From Candidatus Angelobacter sp. (GTDB taxonomy: Bacteria; Chloroflexota; Dormibacteria; Aeolococcales; Aeolococcaceae): a stretch of DNA of 64,000 nucleotides. Position 1 is the stretch's first letter, and the number at the start of each line of letters is the position of its first letter. Location: assembly GCA_035569495.1 (NCBI GenBank), contig DATMMX010000011.1, positions 265,060-329,059 of the forward strand, written 5' to 3'. The notes under the pieces are model-generated. The model saw nothing but the letters and a program-made list of their open reading frames with translations. It had not been told where the DNA came from and did not search any database. Positions 1 to 49,998 of the stretch are shown one piece after another. The translations under genes and the position numbers were made by a program.

Positions 1-1412
1 ACCCCCGCGCAGCCGCAAGCGCACCGCCCTGAAACCGCGACCTAGCGCCGAGGATGCGCATGATCCGCGCCACCCGCCGCTGCACAGAGCGGTGGTCAAT
101 GCGCACGTCATGGCAAATGGCGGTGTCCGTGGCTCCGCTTGCGAGCAGGGCAAGGATGCGCCGATCGATGGCCTCGAGCTCTCCCTCGGTCTCCCGGGTC
201 GTGACAAACGCGCTTGCGTCCGCCCACACTCGCTCGAACAGGTCGATGAGCAACTCGAGCAGCGGGGACGGGTGGACGAACAGGGCACCCTCCAGCTCGT
301 CTTGCAGGGGCAGCAAAGCCGCCTCGCCATCGACGATGACCAGCTTTGCGGGCACGCGCGCCGTCCGCGCCTCCTCACCAGCCGCGACCGCGCGGAGGGC
401 ATGGCTCAGCTGGCCCTGGCTCAGCCCCTCCATGTCGTAGACGGCCCGAACGCGAACGCCCCGCCCCAGCATCCTCTCCTCTGCAGGCGCCGCCGAGACC
501 GGGTCGGCGGCGTACGGTCCCTTGTCGAACGCCCGGATCTCCAGTCGCGCCGTGCGCTGAAGCTGCTGGTGCCGCTGGCTGATCGCCTCGCGGCCGATCA
601 CCACCTCGACGACCTCCTCAAGGGGCGGGCCATCCGCGTTTCGAGGGCGCGCCTGCCGCTGGCGATCGCCGATCTGTGCCGCCGCCAGGCGAGTCCGCTC
701 CAGCTCCTCCTGGCGCTGCAGGATGAGCACCTCAATGGCCACGGGTGCCGGTGCCGCCACGTACCGCGGCGGCCGCGTTGCGGAACGCGTCACCAACCCA
801 CGAGCGCCGAGGGAGACGGCGGTGGCCTCGATATCCTCGACGCTGATCCCGACCAGCTCAGCTAGCTCACCGTCGCTACTGACTGGATGGTCCACCAACG
901 CCAGGTAGAGCGCCTCTTCGACCGCCGAGACGCCAACGCCTTCGAGCACCCGCCCCATCCTATGGACCTCCCCGCCGCCGTTCGGCCGCTTAAGACTGTC
1001 GTAAACCCGCCAGCGTCGTCTTTACGACTATAGCTCCTCTGCGCCGTGCCGAACTCGTTCACGGGTGATGTGCAACCTGCCTCGACACCAAAGGTGGAAC
1101 TGTCGGATTGGGATAGGGGCCCGTGCCGGCCAGCTTGTACACGACAGGCGGGAGGCGGAAGGGCCTCCACGGAACCCAGGGCGGTTCACTACGCGCGTGT
1201 GTCGGGGAACGCCGCTGCGCATCTAAGCGAAGGGCTTTGGTCGCGTGGTCGTCGAGACGTCGGCGGCCTGTCAGTCGTGCGGCGAGTGGGCGGACATGCT
1301 TTCCCGGCTTGACGCCCGGCGTCGTAAAGGCGACACCGTCGTGTTTGCGACCGTGGCACTGTTTGCACGGCGCCTAACAATTGGTGCGCACCTGGGGATC
1401 AAAGGAGACTAT

Positions 1413-2441
1413 GTGAAGGTCTTGCCGCCTGCAGCAGCGTTACGCCGGCTGGCGCCCGTCTTCGTCACCTTGGCAGTTCTCGCCTGCCCGCCCGTCCGCG
1501 CTGCCGCCGCGCCGCCCGCCCCTGCACCTCCGCCCGGGACTCACATCACGGCGAGCGGACCGACACAACTCTGGCTGTCCGCCGCGGGGCAGGCGACGCT
1601 GCCCGACCCACACCAGCCGCTCTGCACCTTCATCTGGACCACCACATGGCAGAGGACGGGCTACGCGCCCGATGGCTACGACACCGACCTCCTTACTCGC
1701 TGGGGCAACACCGTCACCTGCCAGGCCGGGCTTTCGAGCCGGCTTGCGGTGCACGACGAGCTCTATGACCCCTGGCACCACCTCATGGGCGTCTCCGACA
1801 ACGCGTGCGCCGCTTGCTCGGGCCCGCTGAGCGCGTTCATTCCGGCGACCAACTGCAACCCATGCCACATCTGGGGCACCCCGTTCGACTACCAGGGTCA
1901 GCACCTTCGCAACGAGGGCTACGAGATGGACAGCTTCTACACTGTTGTCTTCACCGTCCCTCTGCTCAACACGTACGAATGGGCCACCGTCGGCGAGTCG
2001 GAAACTCACAACCAGGCGTGCTCCGGTCCGCCGTCCGCCCTGAACGGCGATCCGTACACATGGGGGCCCTGCGGCCAGGCCATCATGTGGATTCCCAAGG
2101 CGAAGAAGGGAGACGGCAACGCGAGCTTCACGACCAGCGGGAACGGGGAGAGCACCGAGTACACGCCCGTCGCTCCCCTTGGCCCTGCCGAAGCCACCCC
2201 TTTGCCGACCCGACCCCCAGCCCAGGGTTCCGCCCCCCGTCCTCTGGCCGAGGCGGCGACCGAACCCCGGCCGCTGCCGTTCACTGACGGGCTCTCCGCC
2301 GCGCCGGCCGCCCCTGCTCTTGCCCCTCTCGCCGTGCTGGTGATGGCGGGTGGACTTCGCCGCCATCGGCGCGCCGGTTTGGCAGGCCGGGCGCGTCCTC
2401 GACGTCACCCGGCCTACCCGCTTGTCAGCCGACGGGGCTAG
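1413..2441 (+). CDS. Secreted cysteine-rich protein of unknown function. GTG start at 1413 with an AAGGAG RBS at 1402-1407. N-terminal signal peptide. The C-terminus has LPFTDG followed by a hydrophobic stretch and a basic tail, which resembles a sortase sorting signal.
   Basis: In-frame GTG preceded by aaaggagact. Hydrophobic N-terminus (LAPVFVTLAVLACPPVRAAAA). Many conserved-looking Cys/Trp. C-terminal RPLPFTDG...LAVLVMAGGLRRHRR. Confidence 0.55.
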   Translation: MKVLPPAAALRRLAPVFVTLAVLACPPVRAAAAPPAPAPPPGTHITASGPTQLWLSAAGQATLPDPHQPLCTFIWTTTWQRTGYAPDGYDTDLLTRWGNTVTCQAGLSSRLAVHDELYDPWHHLMGVSDNACAACSGPLSAFIPATNCNPCHIWGTPFDYQGQHLRNEGYEMDSFYTVVFTVPLLNTYEWATVGESETHNQACSGPPSALNGDPYTWGPCGQAIMWIPKAKKGDGNASFTTSGNGESTEYTPVAPLGPAEATPLPTRPPAQGSAPRPLAEAATEPRPLPFTDGLSAAPAAPALAPLAVLVMAGGLRRHRRAGLAGRARPRRHPAYPLVSRRG

Positions 2442-3034
2442 TTGATCGCCGGGGTGGCGTCAGTACCCGCGAACGAGTCGAAGGTCGTCGCGGTCACCGA
2501 GCTGATCGTGGTGGTGCGGGTGAGCTGGCCGTTGACGAAGCCCTCCCACACCGACACGGGCTCCAAGCCCGCGCTGTAGGTGTAGGCCCGCGCGCCAGCG
2601 GCCGTGTCTACGGCGACGCCGTTGATGACGCCGGTGCTGAACTGCACCGTCGAGGGGACGGTCTCGCTGTAGACGGGGATTCCGGCAGAGTTGAAGCCGA
2701 CCACGGTCACGCTCGCGGCTGCGCTCTGCAACGTCCCGACCGCGCGGGCCGTCTGGACCGCCCACGCCACGTTGACCGTGCCGAGCGCGGTCTGCGTGAC
2801 CTGGACGGCGTAGGTCTCCGGCGCCAGCGCCGCCGTCGTGACGAGGCCCGCACCGAACCCCATGTTCTGCTGCGCGGGGATCTGCACGATCGGGGCGGCC
2901 ACGACGCCCGTGGGGGTCAGCGCCCCGAAGGTTCCTGCCGGGCTCGCGAAGCCGGCGGCCTGCATTGAAATCGCTGCGGCGGCGGCGAGGACGAGCGCAA
3001 TGGGCGCGCGTCGACCAATGGTGGAACGGAACAT
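2438..3034 (-). CDS. Secreted hypothetical protein (198 aa) with a signal peptide and a Thr/Val/Ala-rich beta-type composition.
   Basis: Six-frame ORF. N-terminus MFRSTIGRRAPIALVLAAAAAISMQAAGFA is a classic Sec signal. No recognisable domain. Confidence 0.55.
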   Translation of the reverse strand: MFRSTIGRRAPIALVLAAAAAISMQAAGFASPAGTFGALTPTGVVAAPIVQIPAQQNMGFGAGLVTTAALAPETYAVQVTQTALGTVNVAWAVQTARAVGTLQSAAASVTVVGFNSAGIPVYSETVPSTVQFSTGVINGVAVDTAAGARAYTYSAGLEPVSVWEGFVNGQLTRTTTISSVTATTFDSFAGTDATPAIN

Positions 3035-3312
3035 GTCTGTCTCCTTCCAAGCGGCTGGCCGAGTGGCCAGCCATCTGCGGAAAGAGATGATGAGACGGCG
3101 TAAGGCGAAAGTCAGTAGCTGGGACGGAAATTAATCAAAGTCGGACTCTGAGTCCACATAGTCGCTGGACCAGTCCGCATCCCTTGGAGAGCGCGGCCAT
3201 CTCCTCGGAAGTCCCTCTTCGCGCGTCCCGCGGTCCGGCGGGAGACGCTGCGGGTGTACGAGTGGGCCGCGCTGGGCCGCCGAGGGACGAGCGTCGGGCC
3301 GGCCGCGTTGAG

Positions 3313-3951
3313 CTACAAGGGTGCGGCGAAGGACCCCGTCACAATGAGCGTCGCCGGCCACTGGTCGAAGCAGCTCAGCGGGACGCCGAGCGGGTTCCAC
3401 ACGGGGATGAGCTTGCCTACGCCGTTGCCGCCAAGGAGACTCGTCTGCACGGCAGCGCCGGAACCGTCACGCAGCTTGAGCTCGGGTTGGAACAGCACAA
3501 GAGTCGTTCCGTACTGCCACCAATCCATCGTGAAAATTAGCGAGGCGCCGGTTGAGACCACCCCGTTGTCGATCAGCGTGCCACCGGTCACGGTGGGATT
3601 GACGTTGCCAGTGCCGATGAGCTCACCACTCGGATCGCCAGTACAACCCTCTGTGTTGGAGGCGGGTCCCGTCATGTTGATGCCTGTCGCGGCGAACGTG
3701 GCGGTGAACGGGCGGTTGCTGACGTCCAGTCCGCTCACGGTGCCCTCGAATGTCCCCGTGGCGAGCCCTCCGCAACTCAGCGGACAGGGAAACGCCTGAG
3801 TGGGAAAGGAGAAGTTGAACACGGCCGTCGTGGTCATTGCGTTCACCGGCGCTGCGGATGCGGCGCGTGGCTGCAACGCGAAGCTCAGCGCGAATGCAAC
3901 ACTGACGATCCAGCACGCGCGCGTGCACGAGCGCAACGAAACCACCGCCAA
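3313..3951 (-). CDS. Secreted hypothetical protein (212 aa) with a signal peptide.
   Basis: N-terminal hydrophobic segment followed by an AxA cleavage-like motif (RAASAAP). Gly/Thr-rich mature region. Same strand and context as the neighbouring secreted proteins. Confidence 0.55.
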   Translation of the reverse strand: MAVVSLRSCTRACWIVSVAFALSFALQPRAASAAPVNAMTTTAVFNFSFPTQAFPCPLSCGGLATGTFEGTVSGLDVSNRPFTATFAATGINMTGPASNTEGCTGDPSGELIGTGNVNPTVTGGTLIDNGVVSTGASLIFTMDWWQYGTTLVLFQPELKLRDGSGAAVQTSLLGGNGVGKLIPVWNPLGVPLSCFDQWPATLIVTGSFAAPL

Positions 3952-4098
3952 CCCTCCCCACGGCGCCGCTGCCCCATAGGCGCGGCGAGCCGCAGCGTTC
4001 GGACAGGAGAGAGTGTCGCTGCCTGGTGTGAGCTGAGGCTAGTGAATCAGACGCCGCGATTACGACTGTGCCGCATACACGACACAGTCAGCGGGGAA

Positions 4099-6018
4099 TC
4101 AGGTTTGGCACCGTGCGTGCCACGAGACGCCGCCGTCGACTGTGCAGCGGACTGCGACCCCGACGACGATGTCGAGAACGCGACCAGCGGAAGGTGCCAG
4201 CAGAAGACCTGGCAGACCGAGCTTCGGATCGCGGCTTGTCACGTCCACCCAGGCGCGGTCGGCGAAGTTTGCCGACAGCATGAGCGCATCCTGGCCATCG
4301 CCTCGCTCAGCTATGGCCCAGGCGCGGCTCGAGGTGATGGCCGCGCTGTGGATGTACGTTCCGGTGGGAGGCGCAGGGAGTGGGTGGAACGACCTGCCTG
4401 CGTCGAGTGAGATCGCTGCCTCGACGGTTGTGGCGACCATCACTCCGCCGTCGGAGAGAAAGCTGGGCGACAGTGCGAGGGCGACGAACGCACCCGACGG
4501 GAGGTTCTGGCCTACGCGCGCCTGGCAGGGCCCGTTGCGTGGGCAGATCAGAAGCGTCGGCCCGGGCACCGGTGTCGCAGGCGGAATCAAGGACGTGATC
4601 GCCGTCAGGACAACAACCGCGCTCGCGGTGTCGCCGAATGGTGTGGCCAAGAGCGCTGGAGCTGAGCTGCCGGCCGGTCGCTCGCCGACGACTACATCAG
4701 TCTGTCCAGTGTCGAACCGATAGCTCAGAACGCCAGCCGACGTAGCGTCGAAGACTCGGGGATCACCGTTGTCGAGGCCGGCGGAGACCGCGAGCTGACC
4801 CGGCGGCAGCGGGAGCGCGGCGAACGGCCCGCCGAAGACAGGCGCCACGTAGTCGAGCAGCCCAGGTTGGGCGGGGTTGCCGATGAAGATGCGTGGATCG
4901 GTCGGGTAGGTCGGCGGCAATGCGATGGTCGCCCCGATGAGGACTGGCGGGACGACGCCGGGCGGGGTGTGTTCCCACGTCCGGCCGCCATCCGTCGTCC
5001 GGTACAGCAGTGGGCATCCGCAGCTCGCTCCGGTGCCCAGGCCGAGGGCCGTGTGGGTCGAGTCGAAGTCGGGATCGGCCGTCGCGGCGGTGAGCTGCGT
5101 GTCGGCGATGGTGTCGGCTCCGCTCAGGTCGGTCAGGTACACCGTTCCCACGGGCTGACGACGCACCTCGAGCTGGAGCGGGCCACCGCGGCGAGGGACG
5201 GCGGGCGCGTTGACCGCGCTGACGAGAGGAACTCTGGCTGGTAGATCGGCGACGCCGTGATGTGCAGGCGCCGCGAGCGACCCGGCGGGTGTCGGTGAAG
5301 CCGCCCCGACAAGGAGGAGAAGGGCGAGAGCAGCCGGGACCAACGTCTGCGTGGTGACGTCCGAGGCGACGGCGGAGCCGACATACCGATCCAGCGCGAC
5401 ACGGAGAGCGAAGGCGCCGTTGGTCCGCCCGCCGCGGCGCCTGGCGCGCAGCCGGCGCAGCAGCGCGGCGAGGCCCGCGCCGAGACCCAGCCCCAAGGCG
5501 CGAAGGTGCTCGCGTGCCGATCGGAGGCGGCCCTTGAATGCGTTGATGCCGATGCCAAGCCGCCAGGCAGCCTCGGAGAGGCTGTACCCCGCGAACGCGA
5601 CGGCGACTGCGTCGCGCTCCGCCTTCGAGAGCTTGCGCAGCCCGTCGGCGATGGCGATGCGCAACAGCGCCGCCTCGCCCGGATCGAGTCCGTCGGGATT
5701 GGGAAGGAGCCCCGCCGGCTCGTCGCCGTGGTGTTCCTCCCACCACCGGCGGCGGTCGACCTCCTGGCGGGCCAGAGCGGCGAGGCGCTGGACCTCGTGG
5801 TGCTGCGGGCCTTCGCTCACAGCCCGCAGCACCACGTCGTGCTGGGCGTCTTCGGCCTCGGGCACATCGCCGAGCCGCTGGACGCACGCGCGGCCGATCA
5901 ACTCCTGGTGTCCGACGATGACCTGCCAGAGCTGCTTGGCGTTGCGCGGCCTGGCGTGCGGCAACGCCTTGGCGACACGGTGCCGCGTGTGCGTCATCGA
6001 CCTTCCATCGCTGGTCAT
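4099..6018 (-). CDS. ECF (sigma-70 family) sigma factor fused through one transmembrane helix to a large extracytoplasmic domain with BNR/Asp-box repeats. A single-chain membrane-anchored sigma factor.
   Basis: Region 2 LIGRACVQRLGDVPEAEDAQHDVVLRAV. Region 4 LSKAERDAVAVAFAGYSLSEAAWRLGIGINAFKGRLRSAREHLR. TM helix TLVPAALALLLLVGAAS. BNR-like motifs YRTTDGGRTW, SLDAGRSF and CTVDGGVSW. The start is either 6018 or 5997 (GGAAGG 3 nt upstream of 5997). The 5' part of the listed ORF, up to 6366, looks non-coding. Confidence 0.6.
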   Translation of the reverse strand: MTSDGRSMTHTRHRVAKALPHARPRNAKQLWQVIVGHQELIGRACVQRLGDVPEAEDAQHDVVLRAVSEGPQHHEVQRLAALARQEVDRRRWWEEHHGDEPAGLLPNPDGLDPGEAALLRIAIADGLRKLSKAERDAVAVAFAGYSLSEAAWRLGIGINAFKGRLRSAREHLRALGLGLGAGLAALLRRLRARRRGGRTNGAFALRVALDRYVGSAVASDVTTQTLVPAALALLLLVGAASPTPAGSLAAPAHHGVADLPARVPLVSAVNAPAVPRRGGPLQLEVRRQPVGTVYLTDLSGADTIADTQLTAATADPDFDSTHTALGLGTGASCGCPLLYRTTDGGRTWEHTPPGVVPPVLIGATIALPPTYPTDPRIFIGNPAQPGLLDYVAPVFGGPFAALPLPPGQLAVSAGLDNGDPRVFDATSAGVLSYRFDTGQTDVVVGERPAGSSAPALLATPFGDTASAVVVLTAITSLIPPATPVPGPTLLICPRNGPCQARVGQNLPSGAFVALALSPSFLSDGGVMVATTVEAAISLDAGRSFHPLPAPPTGTYIHSAAITSSRAWAIAERGDGQDALMLSANFADRAWVDVTSRDPKLGLPGLLLAPSAGRVLDIVVGVAVRCTVDGGVSWHARCQT

Positions 6019-6103
6019 GGCGGAGGCTGCCCGCCGATGGCTCCGCGCCCCACCGCTACTCGCGCCATCATCGACGTGCGGCCGGTCGGCCGGGGCGGGA
6101 CGG

Positions 6104-7046
6104 CTAGTGAGGTAAGCGGGGTGACCGGCTGGCGGGCGCCGGGCCACCCCGTCGATGTGACGAAACCCTTGCCGAATCTTGCGGCTCTCCGAGCGTGGGT
6201 GTGGTCGCCTGCCCGCCCGGTCGCAGCATGGCGGCGCCCACCCGTGGCAGCCGGGCTCGGCCACATGCAGCTCCGGTATCGGGGCGCCGGCCCGCCACGG
6301 CCGGGATCGTCGACGCATGTCGACCCGGAGAGCCTGTGCGCCCTGCGTGCGATGGCGACGGGGCATCGGCGCGCCGGTGGAGAAGGTCGGGGGCCGCCTC
6401 GCGGATGATGTAGCGGACCGTGGCCAGCTGCCAGCGCGCGGCGCCGTGTGCCGTGGCCACCCCCTCGCACGTCAGGCGCCGGGCGATGGCTGACCACCCG
6501 AGCCCGGCGCGACGCTCCCGGACGATGCGGTCGTGCACCGCTGCAGGCAGGACGGACGGGCGGCCGAGGGGAACGCCCTGGGCGAGGCGGCACTGCCAGC
6601 GCCTCGCGCGTCCGCTGCACGATGCGCCGCCGCTCGAACTGCGCCCACGCCATGAGCACGTACGCCATCGCTTCGCCCTCGGGCGTCGATGCGTCGAGCG
6701 CCCGGTCGCAGACGGTCACGGTCCAGCCGCCGGCCGTGGCCTGGTGGGGAAAAAGCGCGAAGTCGAGGACCGACCGACTGAGGCGGTCGAGCTTGGCCGC
6801 GACGATGCCGTCCGCCTGACCCCGCTCAATGAGCCGCGACGCTCGCCGTAGCTTGGGGCGGTCCCTGACCGTCTTGCCGCGCGCCGTCTCCTCGGGCACG
6901 GTCAAAAGCGGGCGCCCAGCCCGCGCAGCGGCGGTCTCGATGATCTGCCGCTGGGCCTCAATCGACGCGCCGCTGTCGGCCTGCTCGGCCGTGCCGACGC
7001 GGATGTAGCCGACCAGGGGAAGCCCGTCATTCGCCAGTCCCGCCAA
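6104..7046 (-). pseudogene. Serine recombinase (resolvase/invertase family) pseudogene. Catalytic domain and C-terminal HTH lie in different frames, with a frameshift near 6590-6600. The catalytic Ser is replaced by Gly.
   Basis: N-terminus LVGYIRVGTAEQ...IEAQRQ...GIVAAKLDRLSRS matches the resolvase catalytic domain but reads GGC (Gly) where the nucleophilic Ser is expected. The E-helix MAWAQFERRRIVQRTREALA is in frame 1. LGRPSVLPAAVHDRIVRERRAGLGWSAIARRL (HTH) is in frame 2. TTG start at 7046 with an AAGGAGAG RBS at 7061-7054. Confidence 0.6.
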
Positions 7047-7709
7047 CCGTACTCTCTCCTTAAAGCAACCCCCGGACCGTTCTCTACAAGTCACCAGGGG
7101 CGCCCTCTATCTGACCGCTGGTCAGTAATGGTGTGTAGCGCCCGTGACGTTGCCGAGCGTGAGCGGATTGTGCCACCGACGACGTCAACGTGGCGGCGTC
7201 GGAGCCGGAACCCTTTGAAGCAAACGGTCGTATTCTTTGTGTCCAGCCACGACGCGGCATGCCAGGCGCGCGCTGTAGGATTGCGCAACGTCGCTGAGCG
7301 CACGCATTTCACGTGGGGCTCGCGGCGAGCATCTTCACGGGCTGCTCCGATGGAAAGGGGGGTGGCCGGATTCCCATGAGGAGCGGGGTCATGCCCAGTG
7401 CGACAGCGACAGTCCATGCGTCACGCCAGCGAGCACACGGCGTCAAGCCCGTAAGGGGAGAAGCCCTTCGCCCCTCAGCTCCTCACAGCGGCACCGCAGC
7501 CGTCCGACATGCGCACGGGCCGCTGGTATCGGACAAGCAGGGAGGGCCTGCGTAGCGAGCGTTCGGTTGGGAGGACGCCGCTCATCCCTCAGACAAACCG
7601 GGCGGCAGGGGAAGGGGCGCCGCGGAGACCGCGACGCCCCCGGATTTGTTTGCAGCGCCCCGGGTGAATTTCACGGTTCGCCGGGGCACCACGGAGATCA
7701 GCTTTGCAC

Positions 7710-9473
7710 ATGCGACTCTTTGGTCGACGTCTCGCGCTCATCGCGGCGACCTCGGCCGTACTTACCACTCTCGGGGCCGCCCCAGCTCACGCAGCAGCCC
7801 CGACCGCGCCAGCGAGGACGGCAGCGCAGCAAGGATCACCCCCAGGACAGGGCAACCGCAACGCCCCCGTCCCGCCACCCGGGACCAGCGCACCCCACCT
7901 CTATCGGGAGCGCGGGGGTAACGGGAGTGCCCCCGCGGCAAGCAGCCCACCCGCATGCTGTCCGGCCCCTGGCCAGATGGTCCACGGGCCTGGCCAAGTC
8001 CTTCGGGGCTTCACGCGGGTTGCACTCATCTTCTGGGGCTCCACCTGGCAGTTCCAGCCGGACGTAACCGAAGCCAGCACCGTCAACGGTATGTGGCAGC
8101 ACGTCGGGACCAACCCGTGGACAGACTCGTTGCTGCAGTACTGGGACAACTGGTCCTCGGTCGATGACACAGGCCGACTGTACGTGGGAGCCTGGACGGA
8201 CTTGGGTTCATCTCCGGCGTCCATCTACACCCAGGCCGACGTCGCAGCGGAAGTGCAGCGCGCACTCACCGTGGGGCCGTTTCAGTACGATCCCAACACC
8301 TTGTATATGGTGTTCGCCAACCGAGGCGCGCAGAACGATCAGGGATCGACTGTCTGCGGATACCACTCCTTTACCGGCGCACCACAGGGCGGACTGGCCG
8401 CGTACGCGGTGATGGACTACGGCCATTGCTCGGATGTCCAACTGGCGGGTGCGGTTGGCGACGGCCGTGCCCAGCGCTTTGAGGTCGTCAGCCTTCACGA
8501 GTTCGCGGAGGGAGTCACCGATCCCTTCATGGACGCGTGGGGCAATGGCCAGAGCGGCTCTGAGATCGGCGATCTCTGCCAGGACAACCTGATCACAGTC
8601 AACTTCGGCGGCACCGGCTACGCTGCTCAGCAGATTTACGGCAACAACGAAGGTCGCTGCCTGAGCAGCACCACCGTGTCGTACTCGTACCGCTGGATCT
8701 CCCAGACGTACGTGAATAACAACCAGGCCTCCGCACCCGGCAACACCTATCCGGTCTCGCTGGTTGTGCAGAACACGGGCAACGTGCAGTGGCCCGTCAA
8801 CTCGGTCCTACGACTGGGAACCGACGCCCCACAGGACCACTGTAGCGCGTACTACGATCCGGGGACCTGGAGCGGCTGTATTCGCGTCGGCGGCATGGTC
8901 AACCAGATCAACTCTGCATACAGCACCATCCAGCCTGGCCAGGACGCGGTCTTCACCTTCAACTTCTTCACCAACCCGGCTCAGACGTGTACCACCGTCA
9001 ACGAGCACTTCAACTTGGTGTTCGAGGCGAGGCTGTGGATGGCGAGCGCGGGCATCTACTGGCCCGTGAACATCGGCTGCTACGACGCCTCCTTCAACTC
9101 CGAGACGCCCCCGACAGCACTGGTGGTCGGCGACAACCCCGTCACGAACATGACGAAGATCAGGTTCGTCAACACCGGCAACTTGCCGTGGAACAATGAC
9201 AGCAAGACGCAGCTCACAACCAACGGCTGCAGCATGTTCTACGACATGGTGACCTGGTCGGCGTGCAACGTCGCGACGAGCAGGGTCACCAACGTCTCGA
9301 ACACAGGGAAGACATCGGTCGATCCCGGCGAAGTCGGTGAGTTCGACGTCGTTCTCAGCGTCCCCGCCGCAACCGTACCGGGCAACTACGGCCAGCAGTG
9401 GGTGCTCGTGGAGGCCGGATTCCAGACGATGGGCTCCTCGTACCACACCTCGACGTACAACGTGGTCGCCTAG
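7710..9473 (+). CDS. Secreted (probably Tat-type RR signal) protein. It has an N-terminal domain of unknown function and three C-terminal CARDB/NBR1-like beta-sandwich repeats.
   Basis: MRLFGRRLALIAATSAVLTTLGAAPAHAAAP signal. Repeated roughly 100-aa units containing QNTGNVQWP / VNTGNLPWN / FTNPAQTC. TTG at 7704 or ATG at 7710. Confidence 0.6.
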   Translation: MRLFGRRLALIAATSAVLTTLGAAPAHAAAPTAPARTAAQQGSPPGQGNRNAPVPPPGTSAPHLYRERGGNGSAPAASSPPACCPAPGQMVHGPGQVLRGFTRVALIFWGSTWQFQPDVTEASTVNGMWQHVGTNPWTDSLLQYWDNWSSVDDTGRLYVGAWTDLGSSPASIYTQADVAAEVQRALTVGPFQYDPNTLYMVFANRGAQNDQGSTVCGYHSFTGAPQGGLAAYAVMDYGHCSDVQLAGAVGDGRAQRFEVVSLHEFAEGVTDPFMDAWGNGQSGSEIGDLCQDNLITVNFGGTGYAAQQIYGNNEGRCLSSTTVSYSYRWISQTYVNNNQASAPGNTYPVSLVVQNTGNVQWPVNSVLRLGTDAPQDHCSAYYDPGTWSGCIRVGGMVNQINSAYSTIQPGQDAVFTFNFFTNPAQTCTTVNEHFNLVFEARLWMASAGIYWPVNIGCYDASFNSETPPTALVVGDNPVTNMTKIRFVNTGNLPWNNDSKTQLTTNGCSMFYDMVTWSACNVATSRVTNVSNTGKTSVDPGEVGEFDVVLSVPAATVPGNYGQQWVLVEAGFQTMGSSYHTSTYNVVA

Positions 9474-9494
9474 CGGGCGGCCACTGAGGCTCAC

Positions 9495-9540
9495 TGAGGG
9501 CGGGGGCCGCGGGGCGTGCCCTCTCGGCTCCCGCCAACCC
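9495..9540 (+). terminator. Candidate intrinsic terminator or hairpin downstream of the secreted-protein gene. Imperfect roughly 10-bp GC stem (GGCGGGGGCC...GGCTCCCGCC).
   Basis: Inverted repeat read directly from the sequence. No clear U-tract, as expected in high-GC genomes. Confidence 0.25.
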
Positions 9541-9590
9541 AAACCTCGCCAAGATGGAACCTTTTGCCCACCAACGAGGGTCTAACTCGC

Positions 9591-10160
9591 ATGACCACCG
9601 CCGAGGCCGCCGCGAGGACGCCTGAGCCCGCCGGAGACGCCCTGCTTCTGAGCCGGGCGCAGGGCGGGGATGCCGATGCCTTCTCCGAGCTACTGCGCCC
9701 GCTGTATGAGAGTGGCCATCGTGTAGCCACGTCGATTCTCCTCAACAGCGGCGAGGCCGAGGATGCCCTACAGGAGGCCACGGTGCGAGCATGGCGTCGC
9801 CTCGGCGGTCTACGCGAGATCGAGAGTATCGAGGGGTGGTTTCTTTCGATCGTGGTGAACGAGAGTCGCCGTCGGCTCCGGGGCAGGTGGCACCGGGTCT
9901 TGCCCTGGGGGCTACCCCGCCACAGCATGGAACCGCGCGATCACCACGACGCACACGACATACGCTCTGTGGTGCAAGACGCGCTGATGCGTCTCGACGC
10001 TGAGCACCGTGTCGTCCTCGTCCTCCGTTACTACTACGACCTTCCCCTGCAACGCGTCGCGGAGCAGCTTCGACTCCCTGTGGGGACCGTGAAGTCGAGG
10101 CTCAGTCGGGCCACAGACCGACTCCGCGACGTCCTTTCGTCAACGGAGATGATGTCATGA
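9591..10160 (+). CDS. ECF RNA polymerase sigma factor (sigma-70 regions 2 and 4).
   Basis: LLLSRAQGGDADAFSELLRPLYESGHRVATSIL...ALQEATVRAWRRL (region 2). LDAEHRVVLVLRYYYDLPLQRVAEQLRLPVGTVKSRLSRA (region 4). ATG at 9591 with GAGGG upstream. Stop overlaps the next gene (ATGA). Confidence 0.8.
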   Translation: MTTAEAAARTPEPAGDALLLSRAQGGDADAFSELLRPLYESGHRVATSILLNSGEAEDALQEATVRAWRRLGGLREIESIEGWFLSIVVNESRRRLRGRWHRVLPWGLPRHSMEPRDHHDAHDIRSVVQDALMRLDAEHRVVLVLRYYYDLPLQRVAEQLRLPVGTVKSRLSRATDRLRDVLSSTEMMS

Positions 10161-10975
10161 CGGACGACGCGATCCGCAACGCGCTTCGGCGCGCAATGCG
10201 ACTAGAACCCAATCCTGGACTGGCGGATCGGATGACCGATCATGCACGGCGCGTCGGGCGAGGAGAAGTCGAGCCATCCGGGCCCCGCTTCTCCTTACTG
10301 ACAGTGGCCGGTTCTTTAGCCCTGTTCGCGGCGCTTGCAGCGGGTGGCGTCGTCGCCATGCAGCACCGTACCGCGTCCCGTCAGGCGTCGCCGCCGCCAG
10401 CGGTGGCGAGTCAGCCTGCGATCGTCCAGGGCACCGCCTCTGCCTCCGTGAGCCAGCCGACGGACGCGCCTTCGGCCAGCTCGGCGCCGACCGCTACCGC
10501 GCCTGGTGCGGCTTCGCCGAAAGCATCAGCATCGCCTGCGATCACCAACTGTCAGGCGGGGGACGTCACCGGGTCGTTCACTACGGGCGGCACCAATACC
10601 TATGCGGCTGGCGCCGACATTCGCGTATCGGCAACGGTGACCAACCGGTCGACCCATCAGTGCCGGGTGCCGTTGTCCTGCTACTGGACGTGGCGGGTCA
10701 CCGATAGCAATGGCCAGGTTGTCGGTGCCGGCCCGGCAGCGGGCGCGTGCGAGAACATCCCGGGTCCTGTTCTCCAGCCCGGCGCTAGCGACATGGAGCC
10801 GGTCGGTGACTGGTCGTCGGCAGGCCGCTCCTCGGGAAGCTACACGATCTCGGGGAGCCTCCAAGGGCTCGCGGCCGCTAGCACACGAGTCACGCTGATC
10901 GGTCCAGCCGCGACAACTACGGCGGCGCCGGCGACATCGACGCCCTACGCCACTCCCACGCCGCTGGTGCCTTGA
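10157..10975 (+). CDS. Putative anti-sigma factor, a membrane protein with a Ser/Ala/Thr-rich extracytoplasmic region, translationally coupled to the ECF sigma gene.
   Basis: ATGA overlap with the sigma gene. Single TM (FSLLTVAGSLALFAALAAGGVVAM) after a short cytoplasmic N-terminus. Low-complexity periplasmic part plus a Cys-containing C-terminal domain. Confidence 0.6.
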   Translation: MTDDAIRNALRRAMRLEPNPGLADRMTDHARRVGRGEVEPSGPRFSLLTVAGSLALFAALAAGGVVAMQHRTASRQASPPPAVASQPAIVQGTASASVSQPTDAPSASSAPTATAPGAASPKASASPAITNCQAGDVTGSFTTGGTNTYAAGADIRVSATVTNRSTHQCRVPLSCYWTWRVTDSNGQVVGAGPAAGACENIPGPVLQPGASDMEPVGDWSSAGRSSGSYTISGSLQGLAAASTRVTLIGPAATTTAAPATSTPYATPTPLVP

Positions 10976-11282
10976 GCCCTCGCCCCCCGGCGCCGATCGG
11001 TCCCGTTGCTGTTGTCGCCGGCGTCGCCTCGACCCTCCGGCCAAAGGGTGTCGGGGCTAGGGACCGCCAGCTTCGCCATCGACGAAGCCGACGACGCGAC
11101 TTGCTGTGTGGAGCGAGCGTCCTTGGGTCATGCGGCAGGCAACACAAGTCCCGACGTGACGGTTGACGAGCCGAGTCGCTCTCGCTCCGCAGCCGCAAGG
11201 CGCCGTGTCAGCGGCGCGGCCCCTTGGCAAAATGAGATTTCGGTCATGTCGGTCACGATGCCTGTAACGTCTCTCCCGAGCC

Positions 11283-11876
11283 GTGGGGCGTTTTGCGGCA
11301 CCCGCTGGAACCACGCGCCGACTCGATGTTGCAACCGAGCTGGCCGCGGCGGTGGCCGAGCTTGAGGTCCGAGAATCGTCGGGCGAGCTGGTCACCCGCC
11401 GCGCGATGCAGGATGTCGACGCGGAATGGCTGTTTGAGGCGCGTGACCACCATGCGAGCGACTGGTCACCCATGGTCGACGCCGCCGCGCGTACCTTCGG
11501 CCGCGCGTGGGCCGTCACGACGCGGTCCCGGCTCATCCGCCTCCGACTGGAGCTCCACGCCCGCGAAAATGACGGAGCGCCGTTGCCGCTGTGGGAAAGC
11601 AGGGCCCAGCGCCAGGGGCAAGCGTCCCTGGCCCGGCGAGTCGCGCTGATCCTCGACGCCTTGTATGCCTGGTGGGATATCGAGGTGCGGGTCGCTTGGC
11701 TCATGGCCGATGGGTGGGACGAGGCGGATGCACGCCGCGTCGTCGGTGCGCCCGGCAACGGCGAGCCACTGTTCGTGTGGGACGAACCGTGGCGCGAGAT
11801 TGCCTGGATGGTGCAGCACTGCGCGTGGACCTTCGCCGACGCTGCGCTCGCCGTGGCCGAGTTCGTCCCCGAATAA
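11283..11876 (+). CDS. Hypothetical protein (Trp-rich, acidic). The start is uncertain: GTG at 11283 or ATG at 11406.
   Basis: Protein-like composition (WLFEARDHHASDWSPMVDAAARTFGRAWAV...WWDIEVRVAWLMADGWDEADARRV), in contrast to the overlapping minus-strand ORF, which is Arg/Ser/Ala junk. Lower-GC promoter-like DNA upstream. Confidence 0.35.
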   Translation: MGRFAAPAGTTRRLDVATELAAAVAELEVRESSGELVTRRAMQDVDAEWLFEARDHHASDWSPMVDAAARTFGRAWAVTTRSRLIRLRLELHARENDGAPLPLWESRAQRQGQASLARRVALILDALYAWWDIEVRVAWLMADGWDEADARRVVGAPGNGEPLFVWDEPWREIAWMVQHCAWTFADAALAVAEFVPE

Positions 11877-12127
11877 GAGGATGCCGCGGGGGATGGGCGG
11901 CCAGACGGCAGCTGGGACGGCCGGCCCATACCGCCAGTCGATCGGTGATGTGCACGCCCGTGTCCTGGGTGGCACAAGAGCTGGACACGGCCTCTCCCGC
12001 TCTCACGCAGCACTCACTTGATTCTCGCGTCGGAGCTGACGATGGTCCAAGCCGGATCGCTGGCCGGCGTCACCTCAATCGACAATGTCTGTTGCAACAA
12101 AAGGGCAAGCTAGCGTATCATTGGCAC

Positions 12128-12622
12128 ATGGCCGGTGGCGATCTGAGAACCGACGCCGTGGCTCTCGCGTTGGCCGCGTTCTTCGCGCCGACGCTTGTCG
12201 CCGCCGCCCGGCACCGCGGTGCGCTCGGATCGACGCTCGCCGTCAACCTGCTTCTCGGCTGGACGGGCGTTGGCTGGCTCCTGGCGTGGGTCCTCGCCTT
12301 TCGTGATCGCCGCCCCCTCGTCTCGGTCGGCGTCGTGGTTGCTGGACACGCCGCGCCAATCAGCGCCGGCGTCCTGCTTGCCCCCGACGGACGTCACTGG
12401 TGGAATGGAGCCGAGTGGTCCGACGGATGGATCGAGGCGCCCTGGGGCGCGATGTGGTCCCCTGCCGGTACTCACTGGCTCGCGGGCGGCGACCGATGGG
12501 TCCCGGCGGGTGGTCCGCTGAACGCCGGCTGCGCCGTCGATGCCTCGGCGGCGACGACCGATCTTCCAGACGAGCCGGAGTGGTGGCGGCGCCTGCAGCT
12601 CGGCGGCGGTGGCCACTCGTGA
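12128..12622 (+). CDS. Small membrane protein with an N-terminal superinfection-immunity-like (Imm_superinfect-type GW...GW) TM region and a Trp-rich C-terminal tail.
   Basis: LAVNLLLGWTGVGWLLAWVLAF motif. ATG at 12128. The 5' part of the listed ORF (11591-12127) overlaps the previous gene and looks non-coding. Confidence 0.5.
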   Translation: MAGGDLRTDAVALALAAFFAPTLVAAARHRGALGSTLAVNLLLGWTGVGWLLAWVLAFRDRRPLVSVGVVVAGHAAPISAGVLLAPDGRHWWNGAEWSDGWIEAPWGAMWSPAGTHWLAGGDRWVPAGGPLNAGCAVDASAATTDLPDEPEWWRRLQLGGGGHS

Positions 12623-12776
12623 ACGCCGCTGTTCTCACGACGCACGACGCCTCCACGGCGCGTGACCGCGCTGGTGACCGCGGGCACGCGCTGGTCCGCC
12701 GCGGGACTTTGGCTACAACTTTGGCTACAGCGGCCCTTCCGACCACCGATCGAGGGGTCAAAGTTGAGACTGGATA

Positions 12777-12851
12777 TGGCTGGGGAGAGAGGATTCGAAC
12801 CTCTGATTGGCTGATCCAGAGTCAGCTGCCTTACCACTTGGCCACTCCCCA
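12777..12851 (-). tRNA. tRNA-Gln (anticodon CTG), 75 nt including the encoded CCA.
   Basis: Reverse complement folds as UGGGGAG/CUCCCCA acceptor, GCCAAGUGGUAAGGC D-arm, anticodon loop CUCUGGA, T-arm AGAGGUUCGAAUCCUCU and G-CCA end. Close to the canonical bacterial tRNA-Gln. Confidence 0.85.
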
Positions 12852-19239: not shown

Positions 19240-20790
19240 TCAGTCGATCAGCTCGCGCAGGTCCTGGAGCTGCGACGTGATCCAGCGGGTGATGTCGTTG
19301 GCGCGCACCGTGTCGCGGATGCGCTCGGCGCGGGCCTTGCGCTCGGTCTCGTCCATGATCAGGCCAAGGTAGAGCGCCTCGGCGGTGGCGTCGACGTCGA
19401 AGGGGTTGATGGTCAGCGCCAGCTCGCCCAGCTCCTCGTGCGACCCCGCGTTCTCACTGAGCACCAGCACGCCGTTGCGCCGGTTGACCAGCGGGCCCTC
19501 CTTGGCGACCAGGTTCATGCCGTCGTAGATGGGGTTGACCAGCATCACGTCGAACGACTTGTAGCCGGCCACCGCCTTGTGGATGTTCTCGTCGACCTCG
19601 AGTCGAATCGGCATCCAGCCGCGCACCGAGAAGCGCCGGTTGATGCGCGCGGCGACGGTGACGATGGAGCCGAGGTAGGCGCGATAGTCGTCGATGTCCT
19701 GGCGAGTTTCTTGCAGATATGCCCAGAACTGCACGCGTCCGTGCAGCTCGTGATGGGCTTCGAGCATACGCTCGTAGGCGAGGAAGCCGCGCACGATGTT
19801 CTTCGACAGGTCGGTGCGGTCCACGCGCAGGATCAGGTACTCGGGACGCCACGAGGCGATCTGCTCTTCTTCCTTCAGCGTCTCGGGATGTCGCGCCAGG
19901 CTGTCGAACTCGGCGATGTCGACGCTGATCGGGTAGTTGCGCACCCAGATGGGACGGCCTTCGTAGAACACCGTCTGCTCGCGGTAGTCGACGGCGAGGC
20001 CCATGTTCTCCTCGCAGGTGAGCAGGAAGTTGCGCACGTCGCGACGCGTCTGGAAACCGATGATGTCGTTGCCGAGGATGCCCTGCATGATGCCGTCGCG
20101 CATCCGCTTGGGCAGGATCTTCCAGTACTGCGCGGTGGGCCAGGGGATGTGCACGAACTGCTGGATGCGCGCCGTGGGCAACTGGGCGCGGACCATCTGC
20201 GGGACGCCGTAGAGCTGGTAGTCCTGCACCATGACCAGGGTCGGTTTGTCGCTTCGCTGCGCCTCGGCGACGACGCGGTCGGCGAAGAGCTGGTTGACCC
20301 GCTGGTAGCCGTCGCGCCAGGCGCGCTCGGTGCCGGCGTCGAGCACAGGCTCGCGGCCCAGGTCCCACAGGTAGTGCTGGATGAACCAGAGCAGCGGGTT
20401 GCTGATGACGTTGTAGTAGAGGTCGTAGGCCTCGGGCTCGGGCTCGACGAAGGCGACCCGGTAGCGGGTGCCGTCGTCGGCCTGCAGCTCGGCTGCCTCG
20501 CCGGCGGCGGCGCGCCCGGCGAGGCAGCGGTCCTCGTCGTTGCGCGCCGCGGCGACCCAGACGGCATCGGTGGCGATGGCCAGCGAGCTCATCGCCGTCA
20601 CCAGGCCGCCGGCGCCGCGCACCAGCCTCTCCGGCGTGCCCCGGATGGGGTCGGCGCGCTGCAGGCTGAGGGGAGCCCGGTTGGCGACGATGATCGGCTG
20701 GACGTGCCGCAGCAGCCGGCGCGTGTACGCCTCGATTGCGAGCAGGGTTGCCTCTCCTCGACCGGTCGCGCGGCGGCGGGCGGGCATCAC
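19240..20790 (-). CDS. otsA: Alpha,alpha-trehalose-phosphate synthase (GT20).
   Basis: IIVANRAPL, GGLVTAMSSL, YNVISNPLLWFIQHYLWD, VMVQDYQLYGVPQMV, LILRVDRTDLSKNIVRGF, VNPIYDGMNLVAKE. Confidence 0.9.
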   Translation of the reverse strand: MMPARRRATGRGEATLLAIEAYTRRLLRHVQPIIVANRAPLSLQRADPIRGTPERLVRGAGGLVTAMSSLAIATDAVWVAAARNDEDRCLAGRAAAGEAAELQADDGTRYRVAFVEPEPEAYDLYYNVISNPLLWFIQHYLWDLGREPVLDAGTERAWRDGYQRVNQLFADRVVAEAQRSDKPTLVMVQDYQLYGVPQMVRAQLPTARIQQFVHIPWPTAQYWKILPKRMRDGIMQGILGNDIIGFQTRRDVRNFLLTCEENMGLAVDYREQTVFYEGRPIWVRNYPISVDIAEFDSLARHPETLKEEEQIASWRPEYLILRVDRTDLSKNIVRGFLAYERMLEAHHELHGRVQFWAYLQETRQDIDDYRAYLGSIVTVAARINRRFSVRGWMPIRLEVDENIHKAVAGYKSFDVMLVNPIYDGMNLVAKEGPLVNRRNGVLVLSENAGSHEELGELALTINPFDVDATAEALYLGLIMDETERKARAERIRDTVRANDITRWITSQLQDLRELID

Positions 20791-29393: not shown

Positions 29394-30089
29394 ATGAGAC
29401 GCACCATCTACCTCAGCCTCTTCCTGCTTCTCGCCCTAGCGGCGGGGACGCTGACGCTCCGCGCACAGCGAACCGTCGCCGTTCTGGTGGCCACCCACGA
29501 CGTTCGCGCGAGCCAGCAGGTCGCCGCCGGTGACGTGGAGGTGCGGCGCGTCCACGCCGACAGCGTCCCCACGGACGCACTGGCGACAACGGACGACGCG
29601 GTCGGCAGCTACGTCGCCTGGCCGCTCACCGCGGGTGAGCCGGTGCTCTCGCGCATGGTGCGGCGCGAGCGGTCGGGCATCGCCCTGACGGCGGCGATCA
29701 CCGTCCCCGACGGCTACCGCGCCGTGGCCGTGCCGGTGCAGCCGGCCGGGGCGGTGGGCGGCATGCTGTCGCCCGGCGACCACGTCGACGTGTACGCCAC
29801 GCCACTCGCGGGCCATGGCGCTGCCAATGCCCAAGCGGGAGCAAACAGTGGCAGCCTCGACGCCGCAAGCCCGGCCGCGGCGGTGCTCGGCCGCGACCTG
29901 CTCGTCCTGCAGCTTCGCACCGACCAGGGACAGCCGCTCGACGGCAGCGCCGACCAGTCGGTGCACGGGCTCAACTTCGGCGCCGGCAAGCTGGGCAGCG
30001 TGGTCATCGCCGTTCCCGCCGACGACGTGCCGAGGTTCGCGAGCGCGGCCGCGTCGGACAGCATCTTCCTCGCCCTCAGCGTGGGCTGA
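29394..30089 (+). CDS. CpaB/RcpC-like Flp pilus assembly protein (SAF domain).
   Basis: One N-terminal TM. VAVLVATHDVRASQQVAAGDVEVRRV...GYRAVAVPV...SPGDHVDVYAT typical CpaB. Confidence 0.75.
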   Translation: MRRTIYLSLFLLLALAAGTLTLRAQRTVAVLVATHDVRASQQVAAGDVEVRRVHADSVPTDALATTDDAVGSYVAWPLTAGEPVLSRMVRRERSGIALTAAITVPDGYRAVAVPVQPAGAVGGMLSPGDHVDVYATPLAGHGAANAQAGANSGSLDAASPAAAVLGRDLLVLQLRTDQGQPLDGSADQSVHGLNFGAGKLGSVVIAVPADDVPRFASAAASDSIFLALSVG

Positions 30090-43028: not shown

Positions 43029-43091
43029 GAGGAACGCCAGCGTACACCCGCAGGTGCAGTGCTGAGGCGCGCTCGGCGGCGCACCGCCGGG

Positions 43092-44552: not shown

Positions 44553-44725
44553 CAGCAGCTCCCGTGCCCTGCCCTTTTCCGACTCAACGCGACGCCTCCA
44601 GAGCGACGCGGCGGAAGAGGGCGACGCGGTGGGAGAGCGCGGGTCAGCCGGCGGTCTGGTCGGAAAGCGACGCTATCACCGGTTTGCGGTCGTGTAAAGC
44701 CGGTGGCGCCTGGAAAACCGCTCGG
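44553..44725 (-). promoter_or_regulatory. Long (173 nt) structured leader upstream of cbiA. Candidate cobalamin riboswitch.
   Basis: Gap between the recJ stop and the cbiA start. Minus-strand RNA contains GCCACCGG (B12-box-like GCCACUG) and GGUGAUAGCG / AAACCGG elements. Not verifiable by eye. Confidence 0.25.
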
Positions 44726-46474: not shown

Positions 46475-46558
46475 GGGGTGCTCGATACCGGAACGGATGC
46501 TCGCACGGACGTTCGTTAGTTTAAGCGCTGGAGCCGTGCAAGTGGGACACTTCCTGGC

Positions 46559-47257: not shown

Positions 47258-49998
<2,741 letters not shown>

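Follow-up and report, generated by a model that had tools for sequence, protein, structure and literature searches.

A divergent ECF sigma factor joined to a predicted membrane helix and a BNR/Asp-box beta-propeller represents a fusion family of uncultured soil bacteria

Introduction

How might a sigma factor be controlled when its own polypeptide carries a predicted membrane anchor and an outside sensor, and no separate anti-sigma factor accompanies it? This question is raised by a gene at 4099..5997 (-) in a 64,000-nucleotide stretch of DNA (hereafter the window, taken at its full length) from contig DATMMX010000011.1 of the assembly GCA_035569495.1, labelled Candidatus Angelobacter sp. The gene encodes a protein of 632 amino acids in which a domain related to extracytoplasmic function (ECF) sigma factors is followed by a predicted transmembrane (TM) helix, a low-complexity linker and a BNR/Asp-box beta-propeller. 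Judged by its sequence, the window protein belongs, as a divergent representative, to a true family in which an ECF sigma, a TM helix and a BNR propeller are fused, and this family is sizeable, uncharacterised and drawn from uncultured soil bacteria.

Sigma factors with built-in transmembrane sensors are already known and their general architecture has been catalogued. Among the modes of ECF regulation, C-terminal extensions rank second in frequency, with 19 groups (PMC7826278), and TM sigma/anti-sigma hybrids are established in IutY/ECF243, SCO4117/ECF52, ECF48 and ECF53 (PMC8999054, PMC5826349), ECF263 also being catalogued. The control of ECF sigma factors with built-in TM sensors is nonetheless largely unknown, only that of IutY being experimentally defined according to a 2022 review (PMC8999054). 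The family described here is set apart by the lack of a zinc-finger anti-sigma domain, a BNR sensor with six cysteines, a secreted partner, the occurrence of the same sensor on PucR regulators, and uncultured, non-actinobacterial hosts; our literature search found no paper on an ECF-BNR-propeller fusion.

The fusion gene and its family

The gene forms a single minus-strand open reading frame (ORF) without interruption, as seen in the ORF list and its translation, and its stop codon at 4099-4101 is included in the coordinates given above. Mechanically, the ORF stays open up to 6366, but GC content by codon position backs the frame only from about 4225 to about 6024 (plot of GC content at third codon positions, GC3). 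Two ATG codons, at 5997 and 6018, are candidate starts, the latter adding 7 residues. The first-pass annotation of this DNA had begun the gene at 6018, which is possible; the evidence nevertheless fits 5997, where a Shine-Dalgarno-like motif (GGAAGG) lies just 5' of the ATG and none lies 5' of ATG 6018, and where the public gene call (P0001, 632 amino acids, 100% identical to the window protein) also starts. Residues are numbered here from ATG 5997.

A word-indexed search recovered four full-length relatives of 639-681 amino acids, which align end to end with the window protein at 40-60% identity. The alignment of this five-member subclade is referred to as A1 and that of 60 family proteins as A2. 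It was an exhaustive profile search over 1.84 billion representatives (clusters at 50% identity) that revealed the family, with 2,783 matches at E<=1e-3, 745 at E<=1e-10 and 112 at E<=1e-30; the word-indexed search with the 60-member alignment found no distant family members, just other sigma-propeller proteins. About 85 of the best 150 profile matches (counted from the table) begin within the first 60 profile positions and hence include sigma-70 region 2 (sigma2). These proteins range from about 560 to 800 amino acids, most having 600-680. A contig scan with A1 was dominated by the generic Asp-box pattern and gave one weak Anaerolineae locus, no homologue from a cultured organism being established, and IMG/VR contained no relatives and hence gave no evidence of phage carriage. 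Such fusions had been described at first as rare, a view at odds with the 112 representatives at E<=1e-30, with the commonness of C-terminal extensions (PMC7826278) and with the established TM hybrids (PMC8999054, PMC5826349).

Could separate genes for a sigma factor and a secreted BNR protein have been joined by a frameshift of sequencing or assembly? The gene does adjoin a frameshifted recombinase pseudogene, an indirect sign that the neighbourhood is decaying. Against this stand the continuous ORF with its coherent codon-position GC content, the record of an identical protein on 2-3 contigs across JGI, ENA and Logan sources, and the same full architecture in the four relatives at 40-60% identity plus dozens of more distant ones. 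An artefact of this kind has, in our view, a negligible chance of being the explanation, and the frameshift fusion was rejected on the strength of the continuous ORF, the independent assemblies and more than 100 full-length relatives. The sigma-TM-propeller fusion proposed in the first-pass annotation is consequently borne out in its single intact ORF, its domain order and its collinearity with relatives from end to end. That annotation had also left open whether the fusion is conserved or the product of a frameshift; the full length shared with relatives at this level of identity points to a true fusion.

The sigma domain

The N-terminal part of the protein comprises two predicted domains. 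A divergent sigma2 at residues 8-90 (5728..5976 (-)) is delimited by the A1 and A2 profiles and by AlphaFold2 (AF2) helices with a predicted local distance difference test score (pLDDT) of 88-96, and carries the motifs LGDVPEAEDA (regions 2.1/2.2) and LARQEVDRRR (region 2.4-like). Beyond a short linker (93-104), the helix-turn-helix (HTH) of sigma-70 region 4 (sigma4), LSKAERDAVAVAFAGYSLSEAAWRLGIGINAFKGRLRSAREHLR, spans residues 106-167 (5497..5682 (-)), as judged from Sigma70_r4_2 and from AF2 helices at pLDDT 84-96. The sigma part, residues ~8-167, consists of sigma2 and sigma4 only, without regions 1.1 or 3, and aligns to entire ECF sigma chains of 177-190 amino acids; AF2 models both domains at a pLDDT of about 90.

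When the window protein was scanned alone, Sigma70_r4_2 reached 16 bits (E=0.0077-0.0098), under the Pfam cut-off of 25.7, and TIGR02937 17 bits, under the NCBIfam cut-off of 42.9. Profiles gave a firmer result. The A1 profile matched M. tuberculosis SigL at E=5.3e-7 over sigma2 and sigma4 (A1 26-177 to SigL 7-167) and B. subtilis SigW at E=4e-6 with both domains covered, while the A2 profile matched SigL at E=5e-28 over positions 16-179. Individual family members matched Sigma70_r4_2 in 53 of 60 cases (best 7.6e-16) and Sigma70_r2 in 27 of 60 at E<=0.01 (best 2e-17). A chance similarity to sigma factors was rejected in view of the A1 and A2 matches to solved ECF sigma structures. Moreover, few parts of the subclade alignment are as well conserved as the sigma region (e.g., GRAC.QRLG..PEAEDA and GYSLSEAAWRL.I...AF..RLR), and this strong conservation argues for purifying selection on it. 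The N-terminal domain is thus, as far as sequence comparison goes, homologous to ECF sigma factors but divergent. Regions 2 and 4 had been called clear at the outset; the homology is real at the profile level, whereas its clarity was overstated, all single-protein scores being sub-threshold. Failure against ECF hidden Markov models (HMMs) had been named as grounds for abandoning the assignment, and the window protein taken alone does literally fail them; the assignment is rescued by profile-level homology.

The membrane segment and the linker

A cytoplasmic juxtamembrane segment, residues 172-208 (5374..5484 (-)), separates sigma4 from the membrane. It comprises a Gly-rich hydrophobic helix, LGLGLGAGLAALL, the Arg-rich stretch RRLRARRRGGR and a second helix, the AF2 helices at 172-189 and 193-208 being of low confidence. 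The Arg-rich stretch precedes a hydrophobic segment, QTLVPAALALLLLVGAA, which is predicted to be a single TM helix at residues 217-233 (5299..5349 (-)) with a Kyte-Doolittle 19-residue mean of 1.84. Equivalent hydrophobic segments score at least 1.6 in 48 and at least 1.3 in 59 of the 60 relatives, in agreement with the single helix after the sigma part that had been proposed at first. The flanks of this segment differ in their mean content of lysine and arginine, 3.9 on the N-terminal side vs 1.4 on the C-terminal side across the 60 relatives; together with the six conserved cysteines of the propeller, this bias (the positive-inside rule) fits a topology with the N-terminus inside, the C-terminus outside and a disulfide-bonded ectodomain. 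A disordered extracytoplasmic linker of 62 amino acids rich in Pro, Ala, Ser, Thr and Gly follows at residues 234-295 (5113..5298 (-); pLDDT 33-45). AF2 leaves residues 229-288 disordered, and across the family the fraction of these five residues in the linker averages 0.63.

No domain of the zf-HC2, RskA or FecR type was found in Pfam and NCBIfam scans of the protein or in Pfam scans of its neighbours and family. The zf-HC2 domain, in particular, was matched in 0 of 60 family members at E<=0.01, and no conserved Cys/His column exists between sigma4 and the TM helix across the 60 relatives; therefore, the family carries no anti-sigma domain of the zinc-associated (ZAS) type. Nor does a canonical anti-sigma gene adjoin the fusion in any locus examined, as the first-pass annotation had stated.

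The beta-propeller ectodomain

The extracytoplasmic BNR/Asp-box beta-propeller occupies residues 296-632 (337 amino acids; 4102..5112 (-)), as delimited by AF2, Foldseek and the A2 profile. A motif scan with [ST]x[DN]xGxx[WFY] found three Asp-boxes where 0.027 were expected, a number reached in 0 of 20,000 shuffles: TTDGGRTW at 4975..4998 (-), where the Pfam BNR match also falls, and SLDAGRSF at 4387..4410 (-) and TVDGGVSW at 4120..4143 (-), both kept in the A1 alignment. Pfam BNR itself scored 25.7-26.4 bits on the window protein, just under the cut-off of 27, and was matched in 41 of 60 relatives. When AF2 was run on the window protein with the A2 alignment, the propeller was modelled at pLDDT >90, against a whole-protein mean of 81, with about 26 strands over its 337 residues, from which the propeller is probably seven-bladed. 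Its six cysteines, found in 59 or more of the 60 members, could form three disulfides. At least three Asp-boxes and a BNR propeller had been expected, and both the motifs and the predicted fold agree with this; the outside part, estimated at ~450 amino acids, instead measures ~400 (the 62-residue linker and the 337-residue propeller).

In Foldseek comparisons the model matched Ycf48 (TM-score 0.56-0.58 on the target), GH74 xyloglucanases and the sortilin Vps10p domain at E ~1e-7 with a probability of 1.00, and LRP6 at E ~1e-7; BT4663, a glycan-sensing propeller of a Bacteroides hybrid two-component system, was also listed. The C-terminal part of the A2 profile likewise matched GH74 xyloglucanases, Ycf48 and sortilin. 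With enzymes in this set, the propeller might be a glycosidase or sialidase displayed at the surface, the sigma-like part being incidental. Sialidases and GH74 xyloglucanases are indeed Asp-box propellers among the best sequence or fold matches, and NCBIfam returned a weak match to the F510_1955 family glycosylhydrolase (E=0.0033). However, GH74 enzymes have their active site between two propellers arranged in tandem, whereas a single propeller is predicted here, and an enzyme of the GH74 type was rejected on that ground. Identity to any enzyme is 10-15%, the non-catalytic propellers of Ycf48 and sortilin Vps10p match equally well, and the repeated fusion to DNA-binding output domains (see below) points to sensing. 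A surface enzyme is accordingly a very unlikely explanation.

A portable sensor module and its partner gene

The sensor is not confined to sigma factors. In three proteins of 928-986 amino acids (P0031, P0044 and P0052), the same juxtamembrane-TM-propeller unit follows PucR-type N-termini in place of the sigma core, these N-termini matching the Pfam domains GGDEF_2 and/or HTH_30, with RsbRD_N in the gene-call record of P0031. The propellers of the window protein and P0031 share 33% identity (E=8e-42) with their cysteines aligned, and the juxtamembrane motif LGLGL recurs at the equivalent place in the PucR-type fusions. By these comparisons, the juxtamembrane-TM-propeller unit is a portable module borne on either a sigma core or a PucR-type HTH. 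Separate PucR-type genes also occur near sigma fusions, one in locus L012 (5168-6646) and an HTH_30 gene just beyond the window (L001 17474-18352). These neighbours and the PucR fusions hint that the two types of regulator may be functionally linked.

A second constant of these loci is a partner gene. Here, it lies at 3313..3945 (-) and encodes a secreted all-beta protein of 210 amino acids with a signal peptide and conserved cysteines, as recognised by comparison of loci. All loci examined have a homologue of about 200-225 amino acids 60-150 bp 3' of the fusion gene, among them those of distant sigma fusions (L012, L011 and L016) and of a PucR fusion (L014, with the fusion at 5001-7961 and the partner at 8065-8658). 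The partner protein has no Pfam or PADLOC match. Its AF2 model (pLDDT 74) has no significant counterpart among Protein Data Bank folds, the best being outer-membrane beta-barrels at E>1e-3 and a TM-score <0.3. PADLOC gave no defence-system match for the fusion gene or its neighbours. A second downstream gene at 2438..3034 (-) encodes, from its translation, a secreted protein of 198 amino acids with a signal-peptide-like N-terminus and no Pfam match; it shares 39-53% identity with the products of the equivalently placed genes in L007, L002 and L009 and is conserved only in the close subclade.

The genes 5' of the homologues are variable: the loci of P0003 and P0004 have an XRE-type HTH gene with a 4-bp overlap at the start, a divergent PucR-type gene lies upstream in the P0008 locus, and a decayed recombinase does so in the window. 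Paralogues also occur within genomes. One metagenome-assembled genome (MAG), GCA_037024455.1, is the source of P0008 and P0012 and probably of a further pair on L011; its sigma-TM-propeller paralogues number at least two, probably three, and each has a partner gene of its own and lies near transposase genes (L011 4288-6966, L011 8001-9860, and also on L013). This suggests expansion of the cassette within genomes.

Could the TM-propeller unit, together with the secreted protein of about 200 amino acids that is its obligatory partner, form an undescribed mobile sensing cassette of uncultured soil bacteria of the Dormibacterota/Acidobacteriota type, swapped between ECF sigma and PucR-type HTH outputs? 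In such a cassette the tether or the LGLGL/Arg-rich helix would replace the anti-sigma factor, and the partner would be a ligand or co-receptor. We put this forward tentatively, as a doubtful though live proposal. If true, it would amount to a new regulatory principle for ECF sigma factors and not to another ZAS-type hybrid.

The gap between the fusion gene and the partner gene contains a conserved motif, TGTCGTGTATGCGGCACAGTCGTAA (4060..4084 (-)), aligned in all five subclade loci. It begins 15 nt past the stop codon as an imperfect inverted repeat, TGTCs-N6-sGACA, followed by GTCGTAAT. As a candidate role, this motif might act as the operator of the partner gene or as a promoter-like element for it. 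The pattern TGTC-N14-19-CGTAA has one match in the window vs 0.48 expected, which is not significant alone, and palindromes related to TGTCGTGTATGCGGCACAGTCGTAA are present in more distant loci. The same motif was considered as a structured RNA and rejected for want of a convincing fold, its RNA consensus fold being weak (-7.2 kcal/mol) with an unfavourable covariation term. Elsewhere in the window, an inverted repeat, TGTCGTAAA-N15-TTTACGAC, lies at 994-1035 (+) in the gap 5' of the ORF 1245-2441. It shares a GTCGTAA core with the 4060-4084 motif and may be a site for the same regulator or a coincidence.

Models of action

Taking these elements together, we somewhat favour the view that the window protein is a one-polypeptide transmembrane signalling sigma factor released by regulated proteolysis. 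The propeller would bind an extracellular ligand, either a glycan or envelope component, by analogy with other Asp-box propellers, or the secreted partner protein. At rest, the membrane tether would keep RNA polymerase out of reach of the sigma domain. A signal would then trigger a cut in the exposed linker followed by an intramembrane (site-2) cut, and the sigma domain of ~170-210 amino acids thus freed would drive a small regulon, probably including the adjacent secreted-protein genes. The regulated proteolysis of IutY serves as the mechanistic template: IutY is processed by Prc and RseP and is, according to a 2022 review, the sole sigma/anti-sigma hybrid with an experimentally shown mechanism (PMC8999054). 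Proteolytic release has been proposed for SCO4117/ECF52, ECF48 and ECF53 as well, and for ECF52 it is favoured but unproven (PMC8999054, PMC5826349).

Several points weigh against this release model. The first ones concern the sigma core: Pfam Sigma70_r2 has no match in the window protein alone, which falls below all curated sigma HMM thresholds of Pfam and NCBIfam, and in alignment with SigL its region 2 is without the usual aromatic residues and shows a 5-residue gap over regions 2.3/2.4, so that promoter melting and recognition of the -10 element may be altered or lost. Others concern the membrane and the output. The TM call is based on hydropathy only, and the confidence of the AF2 model is low for the juxtamembrane and TM helices; an anti-sigma domain that would hold the tethered sigma inactive was not detected; no cleavage site, protease gene or target promoter has been demonstrated; and no shared ECF-type -35/-10 motif was seen by eye 5' of the fusion genes or operons. 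All ten family clusters whose sources were checked derive from metagenomes or MAGs. Finally, the presence of the module on a PucR-type HTH is at least as compatible with tethered action, as in ToxR and CadC.

The condition of the sigma core raises an alternative, that of a sigma-like domain which in this subclade has degenerated and acts as a membrane-anchored mimic or decoy, as PhyR does, or as a plain protein- or DNA-binding module. In its favour, Sigma70_r2 is unmatched, all sigma scores are far under their cut-offs, region 2.3/2.4 is gapped against SigL and devoid of its usual aromatics, and a PhyR_sigma-like domain was matched in 3 of 60 relatives. One variant exploits a canonical ECF sigma gene encoded in the same island with a single-pass putative anti-sigma factor, 4 kb away (9591-10975): the fusion protein could titrate this anti-sigma partner. 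Yet the canonical pair is not found beside the fusion homologues in the other loci examined, and unlike PhyR-type mimics the window protein has no receiver domain or other PhyR feature (Pfam, NCBIfam). Both sigma domains are also strongly conserved in the subclade with a confidently predicted fold, and many relatives retain canonical r2 and r4 signatures (2e-17 and 8e-16). On balance, we judge a degenerate domain to be quite improbable.

A different alternative concerns the fate of the anchor. ToxR and CadC act while membrane-tethered, and the sigma domain, or the PucR HTH, might do likewise, the propeller exerting control through conformation or oligomerisation. The PucR fusions make this model more plausible, as they place the juxtamembrane-TM-propeller module on a conventional HTH regulator family for which we found no precedent of proteolytic release in the literature. 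It would also suit the lack of any anti-sigma domain needing destruction, and the conserved juxtamembrane helices could pass on a conformational signal. A sigma factor, however, must dock on the large RNA polymerase core and travel through initiation, and the stretch from sigma4 to the membrane is only about 50 residues long here. This short distance and the floppy linker make the tethered model less plausible, a long disordered outside linker being a poor conformational relay and a good protease substrate. Furthermore, IutY, in the literature consulted the sole TM sigma fusion whose activation has been characterised experimentally, needs proteolysis, and truncated SCO4117 is active (PMC8999054, PMC5826349). 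We therefore regard tethered action as rather unlikely for the sigma fusions, and retain the release model as the one that we favour.

Comparison with known systems

The closest described architecture is that of the Actinobacteria-restricted group formed by ECF52 (SCO4117 of Streptomyces coelicolor), ECF48 and ECF53, in which an ECF sigma is followed by a zinc-finger anti-sigma domain, one or more TM helices, a proline-rich linker and a carbohydrate-binding domain. Like ECF52, the window protein has an N-terminal ECF core, a membrane span, a low-complexity outside linker, an outside ligand-binding domain and no separate anti-sigma gene, and as in all three groups its predicted TM helix precedes an extracytoplasmic extension. 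Unlike them, the family has no zf-HC2 between the sigma core and the membrane span (0 of 60), and its MAGs are labelled Acidobacteriota or Dormibacterota. It further differs from ECF52 in that the outside domain is a BNR beta-propeller and not a carbohydrate-binding module, that the sigma core is much more divergent, and that a secreted partner gene is conserved. Some ECF52 and ECF53 members are said to carry predicted glycosyl-hydrolase-type domains (PMC10766802, a secondary source). These domains may overlap with BNR-type propellers.

With IutY of Pseudomonas putida (ECF243), the window protein shares a single polypeptide made of an N-terminal ECF sigma, a TM helix and an outside sensor part. 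IutY, however, has a FecR-type anti-sigma portion, a TonB-dependent receptor as partner and a Gram-negative envelope around it, whereas neither a FecR-like domain in the window protein (Pfam, NCBIfam) nor a receptor gene in its neighbourhood was found. A covalent link between an ECF sigma and beta-propeller repeats is also seen in ECF57, which is proposed to act via protein-protein interaction (PMC8999054). The propeller of the window protein is of the BNR/Asp-box type and not WD40-like, the ECF57-type proteins are much longer, and the two are non-homologous outside the sigma core. Proteins of ~1100 amino acids with Sigma70_r2/r4_2 and WD40-type repeats (P0153 to P0167) were recovered in the word-indexed homologue search. 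The planctomycetal ECF01-Gob is likewise an ECF sigma with a WD40-like propeller as its C-terminal extension.

Beyond sigma factors, the ectodomain has its fold and Asp-boxes in common with Ycf48/HCF136, sortilin Vps10p and GH74 enzymes, and Ycf48, a single seven-bladed non-catalytic propeller, is of similar size. Identity to these proteins is 10-15%, and they differ from the window protein with its six conserved cysteines, its N-terminal TM anchor and its attached transcription domain. BT4663 similarly uses an extracytoplasmic propeller as the glycan sensor of a transmembrane transcription-control protein, and ToxR and CadC have a DNA-binding output covalently tethered to a single-pass membrane sensor. 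Their outputs, a phosphorelay or a winged helix, contrast with the sigma factor found here, and there is no sequence kinship beyond the generic propeller fold.

Among ECF sigma factors with TM sensors the family represents a minimal case, with no zinc-finger anti-sigma domain and one TM helix. It offers a confidently modelled sensor, a candidate ligand or partner gene, and a natural swap of sigma and PucR HTH that parts the sensor from the output, and is thereby a tractable system for asking if tethering alone silences a sigma factor and how release occurs. It also adds to the signalling repertoire of a barely studied soil lineage; its value is incremental and it overturns nothing.

Genomic context

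A tRNA-Gln (CTG) at 12777-12851 (-), the sole Rfam match, coincides with a sharp boundary in codon usage. To its left (1-12776) GC3 is 0.73-0.91, with 0.81 for the sigma-TM-propeller gene, while to its right (12900-64000) it is 0.92-0.98, with 0.92-0.95 for the genes of PBP1A, OtsA, AcnA and GlgB. Because of this sharp shift, the left part is probably a genomic island inserted at the tRNA-Gln, and the gene, lying in this low-GC3 island, is therefore probably accessory, as part of a sensing cassette able to move horizontally. A search of 18.7 kb of L001 gave no second att-like copy of the tRNA-Gln 3' end.

Directly upstream of the fusion gene are the decayed remains of a large serine recombinase, at 6015-7094 (-) and in a second frame at 6104-6538 (-). 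Its Resolvase domain (E=1.7e-26) contains YIRVGTAEQ, in which Gly replaces the catalytic Ser. The frame shifts near 6550 in the GC3 plot, another frame retains a weak remnant of the Recombinase domain, and nothing is left of the C-terminal domains; the stop codon of the out-of-frame tail overlaps ATG 6018 by 4 bp. Further along the island, the canonical ECF sigma gene at 9591-10160 (+) (Sigma70_r2 7.6e-11, r4 2e-13) overlaps by 4 bp a gene at 10157-10975 (+) whose 272-residue product is a membrane protein of the single-pass type, with a linker rich in Ser, Pro and Ala and an outside domain that contains Cys. This product is probably the anti-sigma factor of the canonical sigma, and the pair (9591-10975) provides an internal contrast to the degenerate sigma2 of the fusion protein. 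A protein of 587 amino acids with an N_BRCA1_IG domain is encoded ahead of this pair (7710-9473 (+)), and the island also encodes a protein with an Imm_superinfect domain.

In the high-GC3 part, the region of ~21-33 kb contains a VirB4-like conjugal-transfer ATPase gene (30089-32242 (+); CD1110 family, E=5e-54) and may correspond either to a conjugative element that has integrated or to a type IV secretion locus resident there. A type IV secretion coupling protein and a Flp pilin are likewise encoded near a family member in L012.

The taxonomic labels of this DNA disagree. Proteins HXA27732-HXA27739, identical to those encoded at window positions 41628-56015, were deposited from a TPA MAG as Candidatus Angelobacter sp. 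(Acidobacteriota, Terriglobia). However, Candidatus Dormibacteraeota is the label of a cluster mate at >=90% identity, a magnesium chelatase, and Candidatus Dormibacteria that of a related locus's partner protein. One of these conflicting MAG labels is probably wrong, and Dormibacterota is the phylum towards which we lean for the host. The housekeeping glycogen and trehalose genes confirm that the window is chromosomal. They comprise OtsA (19240-20790) and a cluster for a GlgE-type pathway at 50207-59694 (+) encoding GlgX, an alpha-amylase-family protein of 659 amino acids, TreS and GlgB, and the genes for RecJ and the aconitase AcnA lie at 44726-50064.

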